A stretch of DNA of 47,006 nucleotides, taken from the IMG/VR virus record IMGVR_UViG_2925903241_000004. The stretch is one strand, 5' to 3'. Positions 1,419 through 46,532 of the stretch are shown here, in pieces. The translations under genes and the position numbers were made by a program. Position 1 is the stretch's first letter, and every line of letters starts with the position of its first letter. Source of the DNA: a virus. Lineage: Duplodnaviria > Heunggongvirae > Uroviricota > Caudoviricetes. The notes beneath the pieces were generated by a model. The model was not told where the DNA came from, did not search any database, and saw only the letters and a list, made by a program, of their open reading frames with translations.

Positions 1419-3860
1419 TTAAAAATCAGCCTGACTCGGGATCAGTTTTTGCCAGATAACTGAAACGTATTTTGCCTGGTAACGGGCGTCATCAAGTGCA
1501 TTATGGCGCTCACCTTCGAATGGAATAGCCGTTCTGGCATCGAAGTCTATGGCTTTCCCCAGCTCAACGATTGTGCGTACATCGCGATCGTTGTAGTAAC
1601 GCCACGGGCAGGGGATCCCCTGCCGTTCGTATGAACGGCGCAAAATCGTGTTGTCGAAGTTGGCTCCATTTCCCCAGACCTGAACAAAAAATTCACCGGA
1701 GTTTTCGTCGATAAATTCCCGCAATTGTAACAGTGCATCATCTAACGGGATTTCATCGGTCATAATGGCAGATTGCGCTTCGCGTGATTGCTTAAGCCAC
1801 CATTTAATGGTGTCCCGATCAATGACTCCGCCAGCAGTTTCCAGATCGATAGTCTTACTAAATTCCGGTCCCATATCTCCGGTTTGCGGATCGAAAAATA
1901 TTGCACCTATTGAGATGATCGGGGCATCAGGATTTTTTCCCATGGTTTCAAGGTCGATCATTAGATGGTCACACGTCCTGCTGGTGGATGTGATTTCTTG
2001 ATGACCGTTCACCTTAATTGAGTGATCTGCCGTCTCGCCAGTTTCATTATCGCTATCGTGATGCTGATTGCCGCCAGTGTTCTCCTTGTGTGGATGTTCA
2101 GCGCCTTCCATTTCCTCCGGATCATCTTCCTGAACTTCAACCTGATACTCTTCATCGAATGTTTCCTGGTATGTTGCGTCGCCCATCACCGCGCCACAAT
2201 CAGGGCAGTTGCCGCCGCCGGTCTGACCGCAGGCGGTGCAGACTTTTTCCACTTCCTGTTGCGCCACTGGTTCGGATTGTTTCGTTTCTGGCTCGTTTTG
2301 TAACGCATTTGGGCTGTTTTGTTCCGCTTTTTGGTCGTTCCGTTCCGATTCATGCTGGTTCTGGTTCACAGAATCGCGAGTCTGGATCCCTTTGACCCAT
2401 TTCGGATCATTAGGGTCGCTAATCCCCTCAACAAATTCACCACGCGATACAGCAAGTAACTTATCGGCGTCAGGCTGGCTGATATTGGCTGCCTGCATAA
2501 TTTTGTTTACTTCGTCAGCGGTGACTTTTACTTGGTTAGCGGAACTCACCTGCGACTGAGCATCCAGCGACTGCGCGTTCTGGCCATGTTCAGTTGTATC
2601 CGGTTCCATTGTTTCAGTTGTTGCCTGTTCACCTGCCATTGCGTCAGATGGTTGTGGTTTTTCTTCTTCTGTTTCACGCTCAGTAACCACCTCGCGGTTA
2701 ATTTCTTCCAGGATATCTTTTTCCGGCGTATGCCGGGCAGCTGTGAGAGTTTCCTTGCTGGGGTTCTCGTGATCAGTTTCCGTCAAATAGGCGTTGATAT
2801 ACCCCTGAAGGCGTCCCGGGTAGTGATAAAATTCAGGGTGTGCGCTTCGGATAAGTGCAAAAATAGCGGCGCGGGAATAGTCCAGAATACCCGGGGTTGC
2901 ACGAAGTGCTGCGGACCATTCTTTGAACGGACTTTCTTTGTTCAGGACTACTTCTTTTGCGCGACGATAAACGCTGCCCGGAATTTCATAAATATTAAAA
3001 TCCATCGGAAGTGTGGCTGCTGCAATCTCCACATCCAGTGTGTCGAGGGTGTGTACTAAATTCGGATTGCGATCGGTTTTGTTCCCACCGCCAGCATTAG
3101 CACCGGAAGCCGTGCGGGTGATGCGTGAAACACGATTTCCTTTCATCCACTCTTTTGTCAGCAGACCCCGATCAGTGTAGTCAGCGTCTAGGTATGCTTC
3201 GAAAAAAGCAGTTATTAGTCCCAGGTCTGAATTACCAGGATTAGGGAAAACTTTGTCAGTGTCACGAACCAGTTTGTGGAGGTCGCGAATCTCCAGCGAG
3301 TCGAGCAGACTGGTTTTATGCGAAATAGCCAGGGCAGTAACAGCCGGTAGTTCTTCAGCCCGTGCAATGTGTAATGCCTGGAGTTCGTCGCGTGAAACGT
3401 GCGTTACTGGTTTTTCGCTGCCGTGTTGAGCAAGCCAACGAATGGGCAGTTCCTGACCGGAGACAGGCAGAAGCATGCTCTCCTCAATCTCAGTCATGGC
3501 TTCGCCGTTGATGTTGGTATTGTCAGTGCTGGCTGGTTTGTCCTGAACAGAGGGGGAAGGGCCGATAAATGTCATTGTGATGCCATCTTTCCCGCCTTTT
3601 TCATAGCGGTTGCAGAATTCAGTATCAAACACGCCTTCTGGCGGAAGGTCGTCAACAACGGGCAAATTGACGCGGACGGGTTTTTTAAAGTCGTCTTCAT
3701 CATAATCGTTGTCATCCATTGCGGTAATGCAGCGGGAGATTGCAACAGATAATTTTTTTGCTGTAGTCCAGTAAAAACCACCTTTAATTCCTAGGCGTTT
3801 TCTTACTTTGTCATTTTTTGCTTCGCAATATAGTGCAAATTCTTCTTTATCAGTGCTCAT
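1419..3860 (-). CDS. Prophage exonuclease with C-terminal DnaQ-like 3'-5' exonuclease domain (YdfE-like position)
   Basis: 813-aa ORF; C-terminus shows DEDDh-type motifs ([25 protein letters not shown]); acidic low-complexity linker in the middle; N-terminal ~330 aa of unknown function. Confidence 0.8.
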
Positions 3861-3953: not shown

Positions 3954-4145
3954 TTAAAATCCTGCCGGGATTTCGTTATTATCCTGGTGAATAACTTTAT
4001 CGACCGGATAACAGTTGCCTGGAATTTTCTGTTCGGTTGCTGCTGCCATACATTCCTGCATTGTTCTGTGAACACTGACTGCAATATCAACTGGCTCTCC
4101 GGAAACAAGAAAAACCGTCAGAATAAGTGCAAATACTGGATTCAT
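3954..4145 (-). CDS. ydfD: YdfD-like small protein (Qin prophage lysis protein homolog)
   Basis: 63-aa ORF from internal ATG at 4145 with AGGATG-type RBS; ATGA start/stop overlap with the upstream DicB gene; hydrophobic N-terminus; length and position match ydfD of the dicB operon. Confidence 0.6.
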   Translation of the reverse strand: MNPVFALILTVFLVSGEPVDIAVSVHRTMQECMAAATEQKIPGNCYPVDKVIHQDNNEIPAGF

Positions 4146-4330
4146 TGTGCACATCCTTTTGGCATCAGACGTAAACGGGCCAGCATTGAAACAATGCATA
4201 CTTTATTTAATAACTCCCGTTCGTGTTTTCTTTTGTTAATGGCATCTTCAGTAAATACAGGATTACTGATAGTGACACCAATTTCAAAACAACCTTCAGA
4301 CGTATTAACGTTTGGTAATAACGTTTTCAT
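4142..4330 (-). CDS. dicB: Cell division inhibitor DicB
   Basis: 62-aa product MKTLLPNVNTSEGCFEIGVTISNPVFTEDAINKRK... closely matches my recollection of E. coli K-12 DicB; located just downstream of the DicF sequence as in the Qin dicB operon. Confidence 0.75.
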   Translation of the reverse strand: MKTLLPNVNTSEGCFEIGVTISNPVFTEDAINKRKHERELLNKVCIVSMLARLRLMPKGCAQ

Positions 4331-4499
4331 TATCGCGCCCTCAACAATGAGTTTTGTGATGCGGTGCCTGGTGCCTCCAGGTGACGTTAACCAGTTAACA
4401 ATTAACGCCGGATACAGAGAATCCACCCATAACACTGTTTTTGGTTTTAACTGTTCCGCGTGCGCTTAGCCGCATTCACCGCATCACAAAATTCACTTT

Positions 4500-4557
4500 A
4501 AAAAGGGCGGCAGAGCAGTCACGGAGTAAAACTGATACCGCCAAACGTCACCAGAAA
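4500..4557 (-). ncRNA. dicF: DicF small regulatory RNA (ftsZ-targeting sRNA)
   Basis: Reverse complement of 4500-4557 reads TTTCTGGTGACGTTTGGCGGTATCAGTTTTACTCCGTGACTGCTCTGCCGCCCTTTTT, matching the DicF sequence as I recall it, including its 3' hairpin and U-tract. Confidence 0.75.
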
Positions 4558-4898
4558 ATTGATAACAGAGGGCGTTGCAGTGGGGTTGTCACTTAAGCGT
4601 ATGGTCAACCTGACAACCCGGTGTCCTCAACGGGGGAAGGAATAACCCCGCCATACTTACCGCCGCGCCATTTCGCGGATTGCCACAACCGGAAGCGCAC
4701 GGTCGACGAAAATTTAACGACAGGCTATCTATGAACCAGCTACCTCGCCGTGCGCTTTCGCGTTATGGCCTGACTTTTCAGGGAAATATCCTTTCAGTAA
4801 ACTGTCAGTGCCGGATGCTCACCCGTGTCCGGCGCACGCACTCCACCTCACCCGTGGAGAACTCCTTAATTACCAACCTTAGCTTCGTTGGTTATCTA

Positions 4899-5117
4899 TT
4901 AACGCGGGTATGTAATCATTCTGGCAATGCTTAATGCCGCTGCTTTTTCCAGCCTGGTGATATCCTGCTCCAGAGCGGACAGATTTTCAGCCTGCTTAGC
5001 CCTGGCTTCATTGGCCCATTTCAAATCCTGCGCTGCATTAATTTTCTGGCGCATCCACTCATAAAGTTCATCATCGGTATAGTCTGGCGCGATGATGACG
5101 GGTTCTCGTTTCTGCAT
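4899..5117 (-). CDS. YdfC-like hypothetical protein
   Basis: 72-aa ORF with strong RBS (AAGGAG 6 nt upstream of ATG at 5117); position upstream of dicF/dicB matches ydfC of the dicB operon. Confidence 0.55.
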   Translation of the reverse strand: MQKREPVIIAPDYTDDELYEWMRQKINAAQDLKWANEARAKQAENLSALEQDITRLEKAAALSIARMITYPR

Positions 5118-5209
5118 GTCGGCTCCTTGTGGTTAGCGTTGCCTGCTTTTAACCACGTCAGGCGAGGTGGTATCCTCTGAGGGGTCTGTTACTCGAGAGG
5201 AAATTGGTT

Positions 5210-5410
5210 ATGAATACAATCAAGTTTTCTTGCCCAGAATGTGGTGGCGAAGTCTTTGACACATCCTTTAAACCGCAGGGCTCTGACAGTTTCGCGGGAG
5301 CCATCTGCAAAAATTGTGGTCACCTTGTAACTGAAGATGAGTCCTCGCAGTTTGATGACGAAATCGTTGACAATATCTTCGGTGCACTCACCAGAGACTT
5401 TCTGAAGTAA
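5210..5410 (+). CDS. Small zinc-ribbon protein (CPECGG...CKNCGH)
   Basis: 66-aa ORF from ATG 5210 with two CxxC pairs about 20 residues apart; antisense to the surrounding dicB-operon direction; overlaps an open minus-strand frame (5189-5545), so strand assignment is uncertain. Confidence 0.4.
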   Translation: MNTIKFSCPECGGEVFDTSFKPQGSDSFAGAICKNCGHLVTEDESSQFDDEIVDNIFGALTRDFLK

Positions 5411-5841
5411 AGGCGCATACCGCTTAGTTACCGCTCTGATAATTCTTACCTGTCCGGCAATGGCGCTGATATCAATATAAAGCGCCATCGCTGTTTCTTT
5501 GCTGATCCCTGGACGCCTTCCATTCTGATGTTTGACTTCGCCCACTGAGAAATCCTCTGTTTCCCCTTAACGCCGGGGTAGCGGAACAAAAACCTGCTGC
5601 ATAGTTATTAAAGTTGAACCCTGCCGTCATGTTCTTACGCCTCGGGCTGGCTACTTAACCCCTGACCACTGCCTGGTAACTCGAAGTATTGCCCTGCATT
5701 CTGTAGGATGGGGTGAGGGAATGAATGAAGTTTAGAAAAACGAACTTTTCAGGTCAATGTTTTTTTATCAAAACATTTTAAGCAGGCAGCTGTTAAGCCA
5801 TCACCACGATGGCATACAGTTAATCAAATAGATGAGGTTGG

Positions 5842-6480
5842 TTAAATATCTTGTTGAATTTTAAAGCATACGCCCAATATGCAAGATAGATCATCCAGCA
5901 TAATTGAAGGGTAGCGAGGATTCGTGGGGACTAAAAGAATATCCGGCCCTTCTATCTCCAGTTTACGAATGACAGGTGTTGTGGTCCCTTTGGGTAAGGC
6001 AAGGACAATATTTCCTGGTTGTACGGTTCGATCGGGATCAACAAAAACTGTTGAACCATTTGGGATGGAAACTCCCCCACCAGATGTTGACATACTGTCA
6101 CTCTCTAGAACAACTGCAAAGGTATTGACCGGGATTTCTCCGACAAGCTGCACACAAGAGGTTATTGAGGAATTTTTCATATAATCACTCCAGCTTGCTG
6201 CCTGCTGAAGTGATAGTAGCGGAACCGTTTTTATCGGCGGTAAAGATAGATCAAGCGAATCACCTGTATTTAACTCTCCTCCATTAAGAAGCCAATTTTC
6301 GTTTACTTTCAATATTTTTGCCAGTGAACTTATGTAACGCGAGGACGGCGCTCCTCCACCGTTCATCCATTGACTTACGGAGCCTTTTGATGCGCCAGTG
6401 CCATTGACAAGGTCTTTGCCTTTCAGGTTTAGCGCATGCATACGTTGGGTTATGCGTTCAGATATAGTTTGCTTGCTCAT
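5842..6480 (-). CDS. CI-like repressor with N-terminal HTH and C-terminal S24 (LexA-like) peptidase domain
   Basis: 212-aa ORF; N-terminal helix-turn-helix-like region and C-terminal region resembling LexA/CI autopeptidase domains; divergent from the Cro-like gene; no Shine-Dalgarno before ATG 6480 (possibly leaderless, as lambda cI from pRM). Confidence 0.85.
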   Translation of the reverse strand: MSKQTISERITQRMHALNLKGKDLVNGTGASKGSVSQWMNGGGAPSSRYISSLAKILKVNENWLLNGGELNTGDSLDLSLPPIKTVPLLSLQQAASWSDYMKNSSITSCVQLVGEIPVNTFAVVLESDSMSTSGGGVSIPNGSTVFVDPDRTVQPGNIVLALPKGTTTPVIRKLEIEGPDILLVPTNPRYPSIMLDDLSCILGVCFKIQQDI

Positions 6481-6571
6481 GTTTTGATTTTAAAACACAG
6501 ATGGTTTTGTTTCTTGACTTTCTTTGGTTTTGATTATTAAACTTTTGACGTTCAGTTTTATGGAGCGACTC
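6481..6571. promoter_or_regulatory. Repressor/Cro intergenic operator-promoter region
   Basis: 91-bp AT-rich divergent intergenic region with four TTTTGA-containing repeats (ttttgatttt, ggttttgtttc, ggttttgatt, cttttgacg) and a TTGACT -35-like hexamer at 6513-6518. Confidence 0.5.
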
Positions 6572-9885: not shown

Positions 9886-10635
9886 TCACTGATCTCCTTC
9901 GGTCAACGGAGATTGTATTTTCCGCATTGATTCTCCTTTAAGTTCGATCTTGATACTGCCATGAACCAGTCGATCTAGGATGGCATCCGCATGTGTGGAG
10001 TCTCCGATCATTTTGTACCAGTTTTCCACCGGCAACTGGCTCACTACGATGATTGAGCCTCGTTGGTACATCAGATCCACTATTTCCAGCAGGTCGCTAC
10101 GCTGTTCTGATGAGAGAGGTTCCAGCCCCCAGTCATCCAGAAGCAGCAGATCGCTATTATTCAGCCTGGTCAAAAGTTTGCTGTATCTTCCATCAGCATG
10201 CCCCTGATAGCACTGTTCCATCAGCGCTTTAAGGCGATAATAGTAGACCTTGTATCCCTGTCGGCAGGCATTATGACCAAGTGCACATGCCAGGAACGTT
10301 TTACCGCTGCCGGTGGCCCCGGTCAGTAAAATATTTTGTTTCAGGGTTAACCAGTTTCCCTGACTGAGTGAACGGATGAGGGCCCTGTCCAGCCCTCTAT
10401 TGTTACGATAATCCAGCTTTGATAACTCAGCATTAAGTCTGAACCGTGCATGTTTGATCAGACGCTCTGCCTTCCTGTTTTCACGGCAGGTTAGTTCTTC
10501 TGCTGTCAGTAATGACAGGCGTTCTTCGAAGCCCAGCTCCTGGTATGTGCCCGGTTGAGCAAGTTGCTTTTTAAGCGCATCACGGAAGCCGGTGAGTTTA
10601 AGTGCGGTCAGTTGTTCGTAAAGATGATTCATCAT
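9886..10635 (-). CDS. istB: IS21-family helper ATPase IstB
   Basis: 249-aa ORF with Walker A (GATGSGKT) and DnaC/IstB-like layout; immediately downstream of istA. Confidence 0.9.
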   Translation of the reverse strand: MMNHLYEQLTALKLTGFRDALKKQLAQPGTYQELGFEERLSLLTAEELTCRENRKAERLIKHARFRLNAELSKLDYRNNRGLDRALIRSLSQGNWLTLKQNILLTGATGSGKTFLACALGHNACRQGYKVYYYRLKALMEQCYQGHADGRYSKLLTRLNNSDLLLLDDWGLEPLSSEQRSDLLEIVDLMYQRGSIIVVSQLPVENWYKMIGDSTHADAILDRLVHGSIKIELKGESMRKIQSPLTEGDQ

Positions 10636-10646
10636 TGGATCCCGTA

Positions 10647-12188
10647 TCAGTGGTAATACTCACTGCCGCGTACGTTTTCGTGTTCCATCGTGGATAACAG
10701 ATCTGGTTTTGGATCCTGAACAGGTTGTTTATCCAGACCTTTTTCCAGGATCGATTTAATACCTGACAGACGCCATACCTTTGTTTCCAGAGCTCTTGCA
10801 CATGCTGCATTAAGTCTGGCTTTACTGTATTTTTTATGAAGGTTCAGGAGTCCAAGGCAGAAGCGATAGCTTTGTTCCGGATGTGGACGAGAGTTCAGTA
10901 TATGAAGCACATAACTATGAGTTTCACTGCCTATGTGCCCCGCCCATTCCAGAAGACGCTCTGGCGTCCAGGTGGCATGCTGTCGATGAGCTTCAGGCAT
11001 GTGCTCGTTGCGGGTACTGTAGCCATAAGTACGCTTGCGCGGGTGCACAGCAACCTCCTGCCCCTGATTGAAGAGTCTTACCAGTTCTCCGGAGATCCAT
11101 GCTTCCAGTTGCTGGCCTAACAGCGAACATGGAACCGAGTAGTAATGTTTGTCGATTTCCACGTGGTAATCGGCATGAACTCTGACTTTCTTCACCAGGG
11201 TGTAACTGTAACTGGCTTCAGGAAGAGGCTTCAGTGCGGGTTTATCAAGCTGGATGAAGAGTTCTGCACGTGAATAACCCAACTTCTGCATTATTTTGTT
11301 ATTCAGTCTTTCCAGCAACTCCCGAATGCGCTGATTAAGCGATGCAAGGCTGTAGAAGATCTCATGCCTGATTCGGGCCATGATCCAGCGTTCAACAACC
11401 TGAACGCCAACTTCAGCTTTGGCTTTATCTTTCGGTTTACGTGGCCGCGCAGGCAAAACTGCGACATTATAATGCTCAAGCATCTGCTGGTAGGTAGGGT
11501 TAACGTCAGGATCATACTTACATGCCCTGGATGTGGCGCTTTTCAGATTGTCCGGAACAACAAGTTCAGGAACGCCACCCAACCACTGGAAGCAGCGAAC
11601 ATGACTCATCACCCAGTCTTCAAGCTGCTGAGACCAGGTGGCCTCTGCCCATGTGTAACTTGATGCCCCGAGAACAGCTACGATGACCTGAGCAGTTCTT
11701 ATTTCTCCGGTCTCAGGGTCGGTAACGCCAACGGTAGGTCCACAGTAATCAACGAAAAGTTTTTCGCCAGCTTTATGTACCTGACGCATTGATGGTGAAG
11801 TGGTTTTGAGCCATTCACGGTACATCCGGCAGTAATGGTTATAGCTGTAAAAACCGCCTGGATTACGCTCACAGTATTCTTCCCAGAGTAGCTGCAGCGT
11901 CACGCATTTATTACGCAGTTCCCGGTGTACTGTAGCCCAGTCAGGCAGAGAGTGCTTCTTCATCTTAACCTGGGTCTGAAGGAACGCATGTTTTAGTTTT
12001 GTATCATCCCATCCTGTAGGTAAGGGCCACTGCTTTATGCCAAGTTGAGCCGCCCGATTAGCATATCTGGATACAACGGAAGGGGAGATTGCAAGACTAC
12101 GACCAATTTGTCGATGGCTGAGTCCAACACCGTATTTAAGCCTAAGAATTTCTTTAAGTTTTCTCATAGAAATTGGAACTGTTGGCAT
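10647..12188 (-). CDS. istA: IS21-family transposase IstA
   Basis: 513-aa ORF with N-terminal HTH and DDE integrase-core-like region; paired with istB as in IS21-family elements. Confidence 0.9.
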   Translation of the reverse strand: MPTVPISMRKLKEILRLKYGVGLSHRQIGRSLAISPSVVSRYANRAAQLGIKQWPLPTGWDDTKLKHAFLQTQVKMKKHSLPDWATVHRELRNKCVTLQLLWEEYCERNPGGFYSYNHYCRMYREWLKTTSPSMRQVHKAGEKLFVDYCGPTVGVTDPETGEIRTAQVIVAVLGASSYTWAEATWSQQLEDWVMSHVRCFQWLGGVPELVVPDNLKSATSRACKYDPDVNPTYQQMLEHYNVAVLPARPRKPKDKAKAEVGVQVVERWIMARIRHEIFYSLASLNQRIRELLERLNNKIMQKLGYSRAELFIQLDKPALKPLPEASYSYTLVKKVRVHADYHVEIDKHYYSVPCSLLGQQLEAWISGELVRLFNQGQEVAVHPRKRTYGYSTRNEHMPEAHRQHATWTPERLLEWAGHIGSETHSYVLHILNSRPHPEQSYRFCLGLLNLHKKYSKARLNAACARALETKVWRLSGIKSILEKGLDKQPVQDPKPDLLSTMEHENVRGSEYYH

Positions 12189-12939: not shown

Positions 12940-13198
12940 ATACAGCGAACGCCATTGGTTTAGTTGGATATTTACTGTGCCGGACAAAAACGGTTTGCGG
13001 GGAAATCTTAGTTAAGTAGAATGACTGCGGGTGCTTGAGGCTATCTGTCTCAGGCATGAACACCAAAAGGCAGATAGAGAAAAGCCCCAGTTAACATTAC
13101 GCGTCCTGCAAGACGCTTAACATTAATCTGAGGCTCAATCTATGAACGGCAAATCTAGGTTAGCCTCTTACGTGCCGAAAGGCAAGGAGAAGCAGGCT

Positions 13199-13354
13199 AT
13201 GAAGCAGCAAAAGGCGATGTTAATCGCCCTGATCGTCATCTGTTTAACCGTCATTGTGACGGCACTGGTAACGAGGAAAGACCTCTGCGAGGTACGAATC
13301 CGAACCGGCCAGACGGAGGTCGCTGTCTTCACAGCTTACGAACCTGAGGAGTAA
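13199..13354 (+). CDS. hok: Hok/Gef-family type I toxin (HokD/RelF-like)
   Basis: 51-aa product MKQQKAMLIALIVICLTVIVTALVTRKDLCEVRIRTGQTEVAVFTAYEPEE matches the Hok family; AGGAGA RBS; an in-frame upstream extension (from 13142) is open. Confidence 0.85.
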   Translation: MKQQKAMLIALIVICLTVIVTALVTRKDLCEVRIRTGQTEVAVFTAYEPEE

Positions 13355-16202: not shown

Positions 16203-16278
16203 GGCCCTTTAGCTCAGTGGTGAGAGCGAGCGACTCATAATCGCCAGGTCGCTGGTTCAAATCCAGCAAGGGCCACCA
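16203..16278 (+). tRNA. ileZ: tRNA with anticodon CAT, tRNA-Ile2 (ileZ/ileX-like) by similarity
   Basis: 76-nt cloverleaf folded by hand: acceptor GGCCCTT/AAGGGCC, D-stem GCTC/GAGC, anticodon loop CTCATAA, T-arm GCTGG-TTCAAAT-CCAGC, discriminator A and encoded CCA. Confidence 0.9.
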
Positions 16279-16599: not shown

Positions 16600-16820
16600 T
16601 CACAATTCCACAGCTTGATGATTGTCTGGCTGCCGGAGAATTTGTTAAAAATTACATCGCATGGTGAATCCCCCTCAGCGGCGGGGCATCTGGCAAAGTG
16701 TATGATCCAGAGAACATGCAAATTCAGTAGACAGGCTGAATTTACCGGGAGGCCCCTGGCACCATGCGACAGACAGAAATTAGGCTATACTTCAGCCCCT
16801 CTCCGGAGGGGCTTTTCTGT
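16600..16820 (+). repeat. Repeat unit A (promoter-like element ... strong terminator)
   Basis: Shares with unit B the blocks attgtctggc..cgg.ga.tttgttaaaaa..cgcatggtgaatccccct, gaattcaccgggaggc.cc.ggcaccatgc and terminal cagcccctctccggaggggct hairpin plus T-run. Confidence 0.5.
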
Positions 16821-17069
16821 GCAGGATGTGTCACAGTTTCCTGAATTCTGAGTACTGTCCTGTTACTCAGGGTGCTATATTTTCTGACGTGATGAAAGTC
16901 TGCCGGAAGGCGGAACGTATCGGAAATGACCCAGTAGAGAAAACGTTGACTCAGATACCGATGCTGAGTTACCGGGAAACCGGCATCACATGACCGCTAT
17001 CCTTCCAGGCTCGCTCCGGCGGGCCTTTTTACTGCAGAAAACAGTTTTCCCGTAAAATGCCACGTTGCT

Positions 17070-17285
17070 CATAATTCAGGCTGGCGATTATTGTCTGGCC
17101 GGCGGGAAGTTTGTTAAAAAATTTCGCATGGTGAATCCCCCTGTGCGGAGGGGTAATCAGCGAGTAGGTATATGGGATAATCGCGGATTCAGGTGCTGGT
17201 ACTGAATTCACCGGGAGGCACCCGGCACCATGCAATGGCACATAGCGCCACTCTCCAGCCCCTCTCCGGAGGGGCTGTTTATATT
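17070..17285 (+). repeat. Repeat unit B (second diverged copy of unit A)
   Basis: Same conserved blocks as unit A with different internal sequence; ends in an identical GCCCCTC-TCCG-GAGGGGC hairpin at 17258-17282. Confidence 0.5.
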
Positions 17286-17311
17286 GATTTTGTCAGATGT
17301 GAGTAAACTCC

Positions 17312-17647
17312 TTATGGACTTTGTTGTTTTAGTCCATAAGGACATATTTGCAGAATGCAACGGTTATTAAAGCATTCATTCAATACGTTATCTGTATTTG
17401 TAGGGCATTCCTGGCTGTTTTTGATTAAATTCCAGAATGTTTTATTGAATGGTACTACGTTGTAAATGGTTACAGGTAGCACTTTGTTATTGAGCATGAT
17501 ACCTGTGTGAGTCAGTGTAAATATACTTTCAGGAGGTAAGAAAGCATCCGATTGATACCAGATTATTAATTTTACTTTACTCCATATGACTGAAAAAGAT
17601 ATTCCGCATGATGGCTGGATAACTGTATCAATTACAATCCACTTCAT
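17312..17647 (-). CDS. Hypothetical Cys-rich protein encoded in AT-rich moron
   Basis: 111-aa ORF; ATG at 17647 preceded by AAGGAAG; low GC by eye (~35%) against ~50% flanks; six Cys concentrated in the C-terminal half; transcribed opposite to the late operon. Confidence 0.45.
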
Positions 17648-20060: not shown

Positions 20061-20354
20061 TTATTGTGAGCAATACACACGCGCTTCCAGTGGAGTATAA
20101 ATGCCTAAAGTAATAAAACCGAGAAATCCATTTACGAATGTTTGCTGGGTTTCTGTTTTAACAACATTTTCTGCGCCGCCACAAATTTTGGCTGCATCAA
20201 CAGTTTTCTCCTGTCCAATTCCCGAAACGAAGAAATGATGGGTGATGGTTTCCTTTGGTGTTACTGCTGTCGGTTTGTTTCCAACAGTAAACGTCTGTTG
20301 AGCACATCCTGTAATAAGCATTGCCAGAGCGGCAGAAAACAACATTTTTTTCAT
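20061..20354 (-). CDS. bor: Bor lipoprotein (serum-resistance-associated)
   Basis: 97-aa product MKKMLFSAALAMLITGCAQQTFTVGNKP... closely matches lambda Bor; lipobox LITGC. Confidence 0.9.
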   Translation of the reverse strand: MKKMLFSAALAMLITGCAQQTFTVGNKPTAVTPKETITHHFFVSGIGQEKTVDAAKICGGAENVVKTETQQTFVNGFLGFITLGIYTPLEARVYCSQ

Positions 20355-23764: not shown

Positions 23765-24991
23765 ATGCTTCTTGATGCTCTGTTTCGCAGTGAGTCTCTG
23801 GAAAATCCCTCGGTTCCGGTAACCGGAGAGGCCGCTGAGACGGATAATATTTTTGCCCGGGATGTGTATGTCAGTCCGGAAACATCCATGAAGCTGGCTG
23901 CTGTCTATGCCTGTATTTATGTTATTTCATCCAGTGTGGCTCAGATGCCCCTGCATGTGATGCGAAAAACGAATGAGCATGTTCAGCCTGCACGCGATCA
24001 TCCGTTGTTCTGGCTCGTTCATGATGAACCTAATGCCTGGCAGACCAGCTATAAGTGGCGGGAACTGAAGCAGCGTCATGTGCTGGGGTGGGGCAATGGT
24101 TATACGTGGGTAAAACGTAATCGTCGTGGAGAGGTTACCAGCCTTGAATGCTGTATGCCATGGGAAACCACGTTACTTAACACCGGTGGGCGTCATACTT
24201 ACGGGGTGTATAACGAAGAGGGTGCATTTGCGGTAAGTCCGGACGACATGATCCATATCAGGGCGCTGGGAAACAATCAGAAAATGGGACTGAGCCCGAT
24301 CATGCAGCATGCTGAAACCATTGGTATGGGAATGAGTGGCCAGCAGTATACCAGCGCCTTTTTTAACGGTAATGCCCGTCCTGCCGGTATTATTTCTGTG
24401 AAAAATGAACTGAACGAACAGAGCTGGGGCAGGCTTAAAAATATGTGGCAGCGGGCGGTGACAGCGCTTCGCAGCCAGGAAAATAAAACCATGCTGTTGC
24501 CTGCGCAACTGGATTACCGCGCTCTGACAGTTTCTCCGGTGGATGCTCAGATCATTGATATGACCAAGCTGAACAGGTCGATGATTGCAGGGATTTTTAA
24601 TGTCCCGGCGCACATGATTAATGACCTGGAAAAAGCCACATTTTCGAATATTACGCAGCAGGCGATTCAGTTTGTTCGCTACACGATGATGCCCTGGGTT
24701 GCGAACTGGGAGCAGGAGCTTAACCGTCGCCTGTTTACCCGTACAGAACGGGCTGCCGGGTATTACGTTCGTTTTAACCTCACGGGGTTGCTCCGTGGGA
24801 CCCCACAGGAGCGTGCGCAGTTCTATCACTTTGCCATTACAGATGGCTGGATGAGTCGGAATGAAGCCAGGGCATTTGAGGATATGAACCCGGTTGACGG
24901 TCTGGATGAAATGCTGGTCAGCGTAAATGCAGCAAATCCGTTGAATAACTTTAAAGATACGAAAGGCAAAGAGGAAAAGAACGATGAATGA
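23765..24991 (+). CDS. Portal protein (HK97 family)
   Basis: 408-aa ORF following the terminase; size and conserved regions consistent with HK97-family portal proteins. Confidence 0.9.
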   Translation: MLLDALFRSESLENPSVPVTGEAAETDNIFARDVYVSPETSMKLAAVYACIYVISSSVAQMPLHVMRKTNEHVQPARDHPLFWLVHDEPNAWQTSYKWRELKQRHVLGWGNGYTWVKRNRRGEVTSLECCMPWETTLLNTGGRHTYGVYNEEGAFAVSPDDMIHIRALGNNQKMGLSPIMQHAETIGMGMSGQQYTSAFFNGNARPAGIISVKNELNEQSWGRLKNMWQRAVTALRSQENKTMLLPAQLDYRALTVSPVDAQIIDMTKLNRSMIAGIFNVPAHMINDLEKATFSNITQQAIQFVRYTMMPWVANWEQELNRRLFTRTERAAGYYVRFNLTGLLRGTPQERAQFYHFAITDGWMSRNEARAFEDMNPVDGLDEMLVSVNAANPLNNFKDTKGKEEKNDE

Positions 24992-25582
24992 CCGTGAAAC
25001 GCGCTGTTACAGCGGGGAGGTGCGGGCGGAACAATATGATAATGCCCGACCCACATTCTGGGGTATGGCTCGGTATTTAACAGTCGTTCAGAACCTCTGT
25101 GGGGATTTCGTGAAATCATCAAGCCGGGGGCTTTTGATGATGTACTGAATGATGATGTACGTGGCTTGTTTAATCATGATCCTAATTTCATTCTCGGACG
25201 AAGTTCTGCCGGCACATTGTCATTGTCGGTGGATGAACGCGGTTTACGTTATGACATTGTTGCACCGGATACTCCGACTATTTGTGACCTGGTGCTGTCT
25301 CCAATGTTGCGTGGTGACATTAACCAGTCCTCGTTCGCGTTTCGTGTCGCCCGTGACGGAGAGAGCTGGTATGAAGACGACGAGGGGATTGTTATCCGGG
25401 AAATCACGCGCATTTCTCGTCTGTATGACGTCAGCCCGGTGACATATCCGGCCTATCAGGACGCAGACTCCGGTGTCCGCTCAATGAAAGCCTGGCAGGA
25501 AGCGCGGGCGAGTGGTGCGCTGAAGAAAGCTGTTAATGAACGAATGGCGCGTGAGCGCCTTTTGACCCTTCTTAATGCATAA
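24984..25582 (+). pseudogene. Prohead protease (HK97 family), apparent single-base frameshift in a G-run
   Basis: N-terminus (MNDRETRCYSGEVRAEQYDNARPTF, frame 0 from ATG 24984) and the conserved remainder (GYGSVFNSRSEPLWGFREIIKPGAFDD...LGRSSAGTLSL..., frame -1, open 25043-25582) lie in different frames; the switch maps to GGGG at 25060-25063. Confidence 0.7.
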
Positions 25583-42992: not shown

Positions 42993-45735
<2,743 letters not shown>

Positions 45736-46153
45736 CGTAAGTAAAATCAGCCACCCACAGCTGGTCAGGTCGTTCTGCCACGAACTGACGGTTTACGCGG
45801 TCGCCTGCGGCAACGGCTTTCCGGCTGATGGTCGTACGGACCTTTTTACCCCGGAGAACACCGGCAAGTCCCATAACCGCCATGAGACGTGCCACAGTGC
45901 ATCTGGCCACTCTGATACCTTCCCGTAACAACTGACGCCAGACTTTACGCACACCGTATACCTTGTGATTTTCATCGTATACGCGCTGTATCTCTTTCTT
46001 CAGCCAGTCATCGCGCTGCGCACGGGCACTGCGTTTATCCGGATGATGTCGCTGTTGCTGACAGTGGTAATACGTTGACGGGGCAATATGCAGTTCGCTG
46101 CATAGCGGTCCGACCCCGTACTGCTCACGCAGCTTATCCAGCAGTGGCATCAT
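45736..46153 (-). pseudogene. IS3-family transposase OrfB, N-terminal exon (upstream of intron)
   Basis: Encodes ...YGVRKVWRQLLREGIRVARCTVARLM...DQLWVADFTY then runs into intron sequence; overlaps the orfA 3' end as expected for an OrfAB frameshift arrangement. Confidence 0.8.
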
Positions 46154-46475
46154 TTTTTCCAGAGGCGGTCGAACTCCGCCTTCGCAAAATAAGCGGAAGC
46201 CTGGCGAAGGATATCGTTACTGCGGCGCAGTTCACGATTTTCACGTTCCAGCTCTTTCAGACGCTGACGTTCAGCGGTGGTGAGCCCTCCATCACCGCCC
46301 CCGGTATCCCGCTCATGCTGGCGAACCCAGACACGCAGAGTCTCCGGCGTACAGCCAATCTTTGGAGCAATGGAACAAATTGTCGCCCATTGTGAGTCAT
46401 ATTCGCTCTGACTTTCCAGAACCATACGGACTGCCCGTTGACGGACTTCGGGGAAAAACGAGTATTTTTAGTCAT
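46150..46475 (-). pseudogene. IS629-like OrfA, frameshifted near the N-terminus
   Basis: MTKNTRFSP (from ATG 46475) and the rest ([34 protein letters not shown]...) are in different frames; break maps to the G-run 46452-46455; recalled IS629 has one more C here (TTTTCCCCCGAAG). Confidence 0.75.
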
Positions 46476-46532
46476 CCTGTTTACCTCTTTCTCAGGAAGT
46501 TTAGTCTCCAGGATTCCCGGGGCGGTTCATAC

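Follow-up and report, generated by a model that had tools for sequence, protein, structure and literature searches.

A sequence-intact ydfC-dicF-dicB-ydfD cassette with an STnc100-like spacer RNA in a lambdoid prophage at potB/potC of Escherichia coli

In Escherichia coli K-12, the cryptic Qin prophage carries the operon ydfABC-dicF-dicB-ydfDE. Its small RNA (sRNA) DicF is cut from the polycistronic transcript—RNase III yields a 190-nucleotide (nt) precursor, and RNase E the 53-nt form (PMC10448788)—and uses its 3′ part to repress ftsZ and its 5′ part to repress xylR (PMC5069750). DicB binds MinC, dissolves Z rings via ZipA and blocks ManYZ-dependent phage entry (PMC6832061). YdfD binds IspG, for which its N-terminal domain is the reported binding part, and lyses dividing cells, an effect that DicB counteracts (PMC8835842). 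Many E. coli strains are known to carry dicBF, not always in the same prophage, and O157:H7 has several copies (PMC5069750); a functional phage with dicB, dicF, dicAC and rem has been reported, and mEp460_evo81 is cited as a dicBF carrier (PMC10448788). Here, we analyze the locus of this type in IMG/VR record IMGVR_UViG_2925903241_000004, a 47,006-nt stretch of Caudoviricetes DNA (the window), for which a preliminary description had proposed an intact DicF-DicB-YdfD module.

We are highly confident that the window holds a bona fide, sequence-intact ydfC-dicF-dicB-ydfD cassette of the 'dicBF operon' type, and that the early-left (pL-equivalent) operon housing it belongs to a lambdoid prophage at potB/potC of E. 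coli. From 5′ to 3′ of the operon strand, its parts are:

4899-5117, minus strand: ydfC, 72 amino acids (aa), preceding dicF in the early-left operon (alignment to K-12; NCBI prokaryotic genome annotation pipeline, PGAP)
4557-4898, minus strand: untranslated ydfC-dicF leader, 342 nt, 97-98% identical to K-12
about 4678-4566, minus strand: conserved multi-hairpin element in the last ~115 nt of the leader, annotated in P1 as 'dicF-like region'
4504-4556, minus strand: dicF sRNA, 53 nt, with Rho-independent terminator hairpin and U-run (Rfam RF00039)
4331-4503, minus strand: dicF-dicB spacer, 174 nt, a five-helix structured RNA (core 4351-4491)
4142-4330, minus strand: dicB, 62 aa plus stop, cell-division inhibitor (Pfam, NCBIfam, alignment to K-12)
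3954-4145, minus strand: ydfD, 63 aa plus stop, DUF1482 lysis protein (Pfam), its start overlapping the dicB stop

Scanning the whole window with Rfam at gathering thresholds returned DicF (RF00039, cut-off 48 bits) at 4505-4556 on the minus strand with 76.7 bits (E=2.7e-15), covering model positions 1-52 of 52. The sRNA is identical to K-12 b1574 at all 53 positions, UUUUU tail included, and hence has the single-stranded 5′ seed and the terminator hairpin with U-run of the characterized RNA; the earlier placement of DicF on the minus strand of 4500-4557 is confirmed. The predicted 62-aa DicB-like open reading frame (ORF) proved to be just that, matching Pfam PF05358 over residues 1-62 of 62 (135.4 bits; cut-off 27) and NCBIfam NF049927, CellDivInhibDicB (134.3 bits; cut-off 100), and sharing 60 of its 62 residues with K-12 DicB. 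The two differences are Q36H and I44V, and H36 is present in the commonest DicB form among the sampled viral contigs. YdfD, likewise foreseen as a translationally coupled 63-aa ORF, scores 87.9 bits against PF07358 (DUF1482; cut-off 25) and agrees with K-12 YdfD at 56 of 63 positions; both cysteines (C32, C45) are retained, and four of the seven substitutions fall in the N-terminal domain. Its start codon overlaps the dicB stop as ATGA at 4145-4142, the same 4-nt overlap as in K-12. YdfC differs from its K-12 counterpart by a single residue. In identical sequences, PGAP annotates ydfC (as 'protein YdfC'), dicB and ydfD, and leaves dicF without annotation. Identity, intactness, order, overlap and strand of all cassette parts are thus directly observed; the bounds of 3954-4557 suggested at the outset were accurate to within 1-2 nt, and the repressor ORF (5842-6480) lies on the minus strand too, as had been stated.

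The likeness to Qin extends to the layout: ydfC, leader, dicF, spacer, dicB and ydfD occur in the same order and with the same spacing. Over the cassette, DNA identity to K-12 MG1655 Qin is 97-98% (98% from the ydfC stop into ydfD), and dicF with its immediate flanks is identical. Upstream of ydfC, however, the two loci diverge completely, with a 28-nt hairpin motif as the sole common piece. The window lacks ydfA and ydfB—apart from that leader motif, the K-12 ydfA/ydfB region has no similarity in the window—and instead has a gene of the ECs_2282 zinc-ribbon family annotated on the opposite strand. Its immunity region is unrelated as well, encoding a CI-type repressor with helix-turn-helix (HTH) and S24 domains where Qin has the 135-aa DicA, a P22 C2-like protein lacking a peptidase domain, with DicC divergent from it; aligning K-12 dicA and dicC to the window region revealed no similarity, and the NCBIfam DicA model, whose cut-off is 101, reaches 37.7 bits on the window repressor, where it matches the HTH alone. 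Downstream, an intact 813-aa exonuclease gene, xis and int stand in place of the ydfE, insD and intQ pseudogenes of Qin. We considered whether the exonuclease might represent the intact form of K-12 ydfE and rejected this, as no nucleotide similarity was found even with a blastn word size of 11. Finally, the prophage of the window is inserted at potB/potC. The claim that this is the dicB-operon arrangement of Qin therefore stands for the collinear ydfC-dicF-dicB-ydfD part, but not for the missing ydfA/ydfB and the non-DicA immunity region.

The 28-nt motif itself (GTTCCGCTACCCCGGCGTTAAGGGGAAA; a CCCC/GGGG hairpin) lies at 5560-5587 on the minus strand, just before the first early-left ORF. It recurs with 96-100% identity in K-12 Qin (just before ydfA), in phage Tritos and at several other loci, and with 91% identity in Rac-SA53; the loci that share it have unrelated immunity regions.

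Upstream of the cassette, we located candidate control elements of the early-left operon:

5729-5776, minus strand: candidate pL-type promoter directed toward ydfC (-35 box TTGACC, 5757-5752; -10 box TAAACT, 5734-5729)
5842-6480, minus strand: lambda-CI-like repressor with HTH and S24 peptidase domains (Pfam Peptidase_S24, HTH_3)

An operator-like palindrome, TGTTTT-N6-AAAACA, overlaps the promoter-like site and occurs again at 6479-6497 and 6527-6545, between cI and cro. Together, site and shared palindrome have the appearance expected of a repressor-controlled pL, and would presumably be used as one. The repressor aligns to the lambda repressor structure 3bdn across residues 13-204, with Ser130 and Lys174 on the catalytic dyad; at the position of the Ala-Gly autocleavage site of lambda CI, it carries Ala94-Ala95. 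In PGAP, only its C-terminal 112 aa are annotated ('LexA family protein'), and phage record ON470612 gives a 199-aa cI. At the start of the operon, two ORFs overlap almost fully on opposite strands. The one at 5210-5410 (plus strand) encodes the PGAP-annotated CxxC...CxxC zinc-ribbon protein of the NCBIfam ECs_2282 family (57 bits); the other, at 5189-5545 (minus strand), follows the direction of the operon, encodes 118 aa, has a Shine-Dalgarno (SD)-like AGAGG and is annotated in ON470612. Among the fetched loci, there were no diverged homologues by which to choose between the two.

The cassette is an ordinary one, carried by roughly half of complete E. coli genomes as well as by isolated phages. 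Of 5426 complete E. coli genomes, 2675 have a place that covers 80% or more of the 1.3-kb ydfC-ydfD stretch, and 4755 have some match (median two places per genome, maximum ten); in the chromosome records of AR216.2b and M217, the present prophage is the only match. The module of phage vB_EcoS-640R1 (ON470612) is 100% identical and has the same neighbors, including potC and potD, which identifies it as the same prophage. That of Tritos (OV696610), where dicF is annotated, is 96.6% identical, but differs in having ORFs at the ydfA/ydfB positions and a short CI. In both phages, as in the window, exonuclease, xis and int lie downstream and cI/cro upstream of the cassette; vB_EcoS-689R5 is another phage carrying dicBF. 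DicF of the E. coli type (72-76 bits) together with the spacer also turned up in contigs of metagenome-assembled genomes (MAGs) labelled Veillonella parvula (L009), Collinsella sp. (L011) and Proteobacteria bacterium (L010); those with Firmicutes or Actinobacteria labels are most likely mis-binned enterobacterial prophage contigs.

The leader bears features that fit the processing described for K-12. The 405-nt stretch of leader plus dicF is 97% identical to K-12, and the leader contains a conserved 13-bp inverted repeat (4760-4748/4702-4690). Counting back the length of the 190-nt precursor puts the RNase III 5′ end at ~4693, within the 3′ arm of this repeat, so that the repeat corresponds to the published RNase III position. 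We had also considered the long stem of the spacer as that site; since the literature cut, ~137 nt upstream of DicF, maps to the leader repeat, this assignment was rejected, and the spacer stem could still serve as a second RNase III site. The leader folds with a z-score of -2.95. For the multi-hairpin element at its end, a consensus fold over ten sequences has 40 pairs, only five of them with compensatory changes, rendering the structure plausible rather than demonstrated. In Stx2c phages, Ayreon and 2H10, the element stands without DicF; it is likewise present in P1.

The spacer between dicF and dicB is related in structure to a known sRNA family. It is closed by a long-range stem of 15-19 bp (4495-4477/4366-4348), found as a 19-nt inverted repeat, and folds much better than shuffled sequences (z-score -4.06). 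In a sensitive Rfam scan, it matched STnc100 (RF02076) with 38.8 bits (E ~1e-6), below the cut-off of 47 and over model positions 21-154 only, falling short of full-model membership. As in STnc100/PasD, the five-helix core comprises GGUGAAU, a C/G-rich hairpin, a variable arm and a CCNGG-AGGCA-CCNGG hairpin closing into CACC. Unlike STnc100/PasD, however, the spacer is sub-threshold and terminator-less, lies inside an mRNA—with the dicB start 32 nt downstream—and is not known as a base-pairing sRNA.

Covariation supports this kinship: the spacer shares the STnc100 core secondary structure. We drew the five-helix structure by hand and tested it on 13 sequences, two of which were the true STnc100 copies of the window (alignment A2). 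Paired cells amounted to 91%, and 15 of 30 pairs showed compensatory changes, values reached by none of 500 shuffles, with the caveat that the structure was derived from the same, mutually related sequences. When partners were slid, 30-41% of cells were paired on A2 and 30-44% over A2 and A3 together. A3—23 matches, and fitted to the model, which tempers its figures—gave 95.7% paired cells and 21 of 30 compensatory pairs, again with none of 500 shuffles reaching such values. Compensatory changes connect the spacer group with the STnc100 group. A model of the element (R1) scores 150 bits on the window spacer and found two copies in phage D6 that were outside its training set. Two other identities were considered. 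An antiterminator of the HK022 put type was attractive because no N gene is visible, yet R1 gives no match at E<=1 anywhere in the HK022 genome, and we rejected it; a tRNA-like identity is not supported, as ARAGORN reports only one tRNA in the window, and the Rfam tRNA model does not match the element.

The two full-length STnc100 sRNAs of the window, at 16629-16822 and 17098-17286 (both plus strand; 138 and 132.5 bits), form a tandem pair that follows the Q antiterminator gene and a tRNA (CAT anticodon, 16203-16278), and have the same core fold as the spacer. In phage D6 (L021), three STnc100-like copies (878-990, 2493-2630 and 3673-3800) are placed among tRNA genes in one operon; the true STnc100 copies of the window likewise come after a tRNA.

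Elements of the spacer type also precede small genes other than dicB. In Rac-SA53, Shigella phage 75/02 Stx, phiSTEC1589 and vB_EcoS-666R9, the gene immediately after the element is kil; in P1, P7 and D6, it is tciA/terB. Among the kil phages checked for it, a weak DicF-like hairpin comes before the element in Rac-SA53, phiSTEC1589 and vB_EcoS-666R9. The kil modules of Rac-type and Stx phages resemble the dicB cassette in combining a terminator-ended DicF-like hairpin, an STnc100-like spacer, a small division inhibitor, small genes and exonuclease VIII. They differ in that the toxin is Kil (73 aa) instead of DicB, and the DicF-like RNA (L015, 2490-2544; L020, 2451-2506; L019, 2709-2759) reaches 35-41 bits and has another 5′ single-stranded region. 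This RNA shares the GGCGG/CCGCC stem of DicF, carries GCUGUGUGUAGUC as its 5′ single-stranded region, and stays below the Rfam cut-off; perhaps it is a paralogue of DicF that acts on different targets. DicF of Salmonella (L007) has a different 5′ end, too, and is without the structured spacer.

A scan of IMG/VR with a two-box pattern returned at least 120 stretches, from which 87 copies were analyzed. About two thirds of these resemble free-standing STnc100. Another 19 have an ORF within ~90 nt downstream (at 32-44 nt in all but one), and in 16 of the 19 a CCGCC-Tn terminator also comes before the element; the ORFs are dicB (10), kil (5), TerB/TciA-like (1) or match none of these (3). In lambdoid and P1-like phages, an STnc100-like spacer has a terminator-ended sRNA on one side and a small gene toxic to the host on the other, and may have a gating role there.

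One way in which gating might work emerged from folding the read-through RNA. In two dicB contexts, the predicted probability that the dicB SD is unpaired was 0.02-0.20 with the DicF tail and 0.75 without it, hinting—at low confidence—that the 3′ tail of DicF (CCCUUUU) pairs with the SD across the closed spacer and so makes dicB translation dependent on processing. More broadly, the untranslated RNA around dicF could be viewed as a chain of separable modules, the spacer being a cis-acting, mRNA-embedded relative of STnc100/PasD that could gate translation or processing of dicB, kil or tciA; we offer this as a tentative and rather doubtful model.

The window as a whole is a lambdoid prophage between potB and potC, matching ST167-type and related E. 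coli chromosomes end to end at 100%. On the left, its genes run int, xis, exonuclease, ydfD, dicB, [dicF], ydfC, the opposite-strand zinc-ribbon gene, cI, cro and ydaT. In the middle follow replication genes, the insertion sequence (IS) ISEc12, hokD/sok, Q, the tRNA, the two STnc100 copies, lysis genes and iss; on the right terminase, portal, prohead protease, capsid, tail genes, J, lom and the tail fibre with IS and intron. Features of the prophage outside the cassette and its control region are:

1419-3860, minus strand: 813-aa exonuclease, with an Exonuc_VIII N-terminal region and an Rv2179c-like 3′-5′ exonuclease domain (Pfam/NCBIfam); the gene that comes after ydfD, with xis and int beyond it
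9886-12188: ISEc12 insertion (IS21 family, istA/istB) in the early-right region
24984-25582, plus strand: HK97-family prohead protease, split between two frames (PGAP: 'frameshifted')
42993-46476: interrupted tail-fibre region, with an IS3-family fragment, a group II intron and IS629 fragments; partial tail-fibre pieces beyond
43556-45064: ltrA of the group II intron (Rfam intron domain at 43466-43552)
46079-46195: ALIL frameshift pseudoknot in the IS629 fragments

The remark that the prophage still has head and tail genes is right as to their presence—terminase, portal, capsid, tail tube, tape measure, J and tail fibre are retained—but the set is not intact, given ISEc12, the frameshifted protease and the disrupted tail fibre. 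ISEc12 is missing from the otherwise identical prophage of strain M217. The frameshift occurs in the same form in many independent complete genomes and is therefore a real lesion of the lineage, not a sequencing error. Despite its head and tail genes, the prophage is probably defective. Elsewhere, the window carries a hokD/sok type I toxin-antitoxin locus (13029-13204, plus strand, and ~13199-13354; sok, 112 bits) and the morons iss (~20061-20354, minus strand) and iraM (~17312-17647, minus strand).

What the module would do can be proposed from the published K-12 products, which are identical or near-identical. In the lysogen, the CI-type repressor presumably holds the pL-like promoter (~5757-5729) closed. 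Were repression lost, a polycistronic RNA would run through ydfC, leader, dicF, spacer, dicB, ydfD and exonuclease-xis-int. By homology to K-12, RNase III—at the stem 4760-4690—and RNase E would free the 53-nt DicF, which with Hfq would pair with the ftsZ ribosome-binding site and with the xylR, pykA and manX mRNAs. Transcription continuing past the DicF terminator would give DicB, which, judging from its 97% identity to the K-12 protein, would bind MinC and carry it to ZipA at midcell, blocking Z rings and leading to filamentation; it would also stop ManYZ-dependent phage DNA entry. YdfD, coupled to DicB translation, would inhibit IspG, and dividing cells would lyse unless division were blocked. 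Accepting these parallels, derepression is expected to block division, as the preliminary description had anticipated (PMC5069750, PMC6832061, PMC10448788, PMC8835842). Expression, RNA processing, the use of promoter and operator, and every phenotype named here are inferred.

Several points weigh against this overall reading. The Ala-Ala at the cleavage position of the repressor leaves SOS induction uncertain, and no N-like antiterminator was identified between promoter and dicF. The location of the DicF terminator upstream of dicB renders the expression level of dicB and ydfD uncertain. The prophage is decayed, and the module may now serve the host instead of the phage life cycle. In the predicted DicF-ftsZ duplex, the DicF loop (CUCCG) sits opposite the ftsZ SD (CGGAG), yet its energy is marginal, with 30 of 500 shuffled DicF sequences performing as well. 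We therefore dropped this calculation as independent support, and the argument for DicF function rests on sequence identity and the published experiments. Nor was SD masking reproduced in kil-type contexts: the folds, which covered the two dicB and three kil contexts, were inconsistent in the latter, and masking by the DicF tail was rejected as a general property of the element.

The rival that survives best holds that the module is kept mainly for host benefit—superinfection exclusion and metabolic rewiring—and not for division arrest or lysis, with DicB-MinC blocking ManYZ-dependent phage DNA entry and DicF repressing manX, xylR and pykA. Published phenotypes of the near-identical K-12 products speak for it (PMC6832061, PMC5069750), as do the persistence of the module in decayed prophages and its very wide distribution. 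However, the same molecular interactions underlie the division block, so that the two do not exclude each other, and isolated phage genomes carry the module too, within the early lytic operon. We consider this a serious contender, if somewhat short of an even chance.

Clearly less probable, indeed unlikely in our view, is that the cassette, undamaged as its sequence is, is effectively silent and merely rides along in a dead prophage, either under permanent repression or with transcription ending at the DicF terminator, and has no physiological effect on the host. The three disabling lesions, the atypical Ala-Ala, the intrinsic terminator ahead of dicB and the lack of an N-like antiterminator, with a put-like RNA excluded, would fit this scenario. 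Yet the promoter, the operator-like sites and every coding or RNA part have escaped damage, and even Qin, which is fully cryptic, builds up DicF in stationary phase and shows spontaneous firing of dicBp in ~1% of cells (PMC10448788). Moreover, the module is maintained at 97-100% identity over thousands of genomes while neighboring genes decay, arguing for selection on it. A chance or low-complexity resemblance can be dismissed, in view of E-values from 1e-15 to 1e-40, full-length model matches and 97-100% nucleotide identity to the type locus.

As such, finding the module adds little: it is already known and very common, and dicBF has been published from many E. coli prophages, in multiple copies from O157 and from at least one functional phage (PMC5069750, PMC10448788). 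The result is of use for annotation, since PGAP passes over dicF in identical sequences and shortens the repressor to 112 aa. With an S24-domain CI-type repressor replacing DicA/Rem control, the trigger of a division block may also differ from that in K-12. Possibly new is only the STnc100 kinship of the spacer and its recurrence upstream of small toxic genes; we found no description of a link between the DicF spacer and STnc100 in the literature searched, and a 2026 preprint on STnc100/PasD is without mention of DicF. This spacer RNA precedes dicB, kil and tciA, three small genes unrelated to one another. Should it indeed control them, this would explain how such genes are kept silent yet inducible in phages, and the orphan STnc100/PasD family would gain a cis-acting relative.

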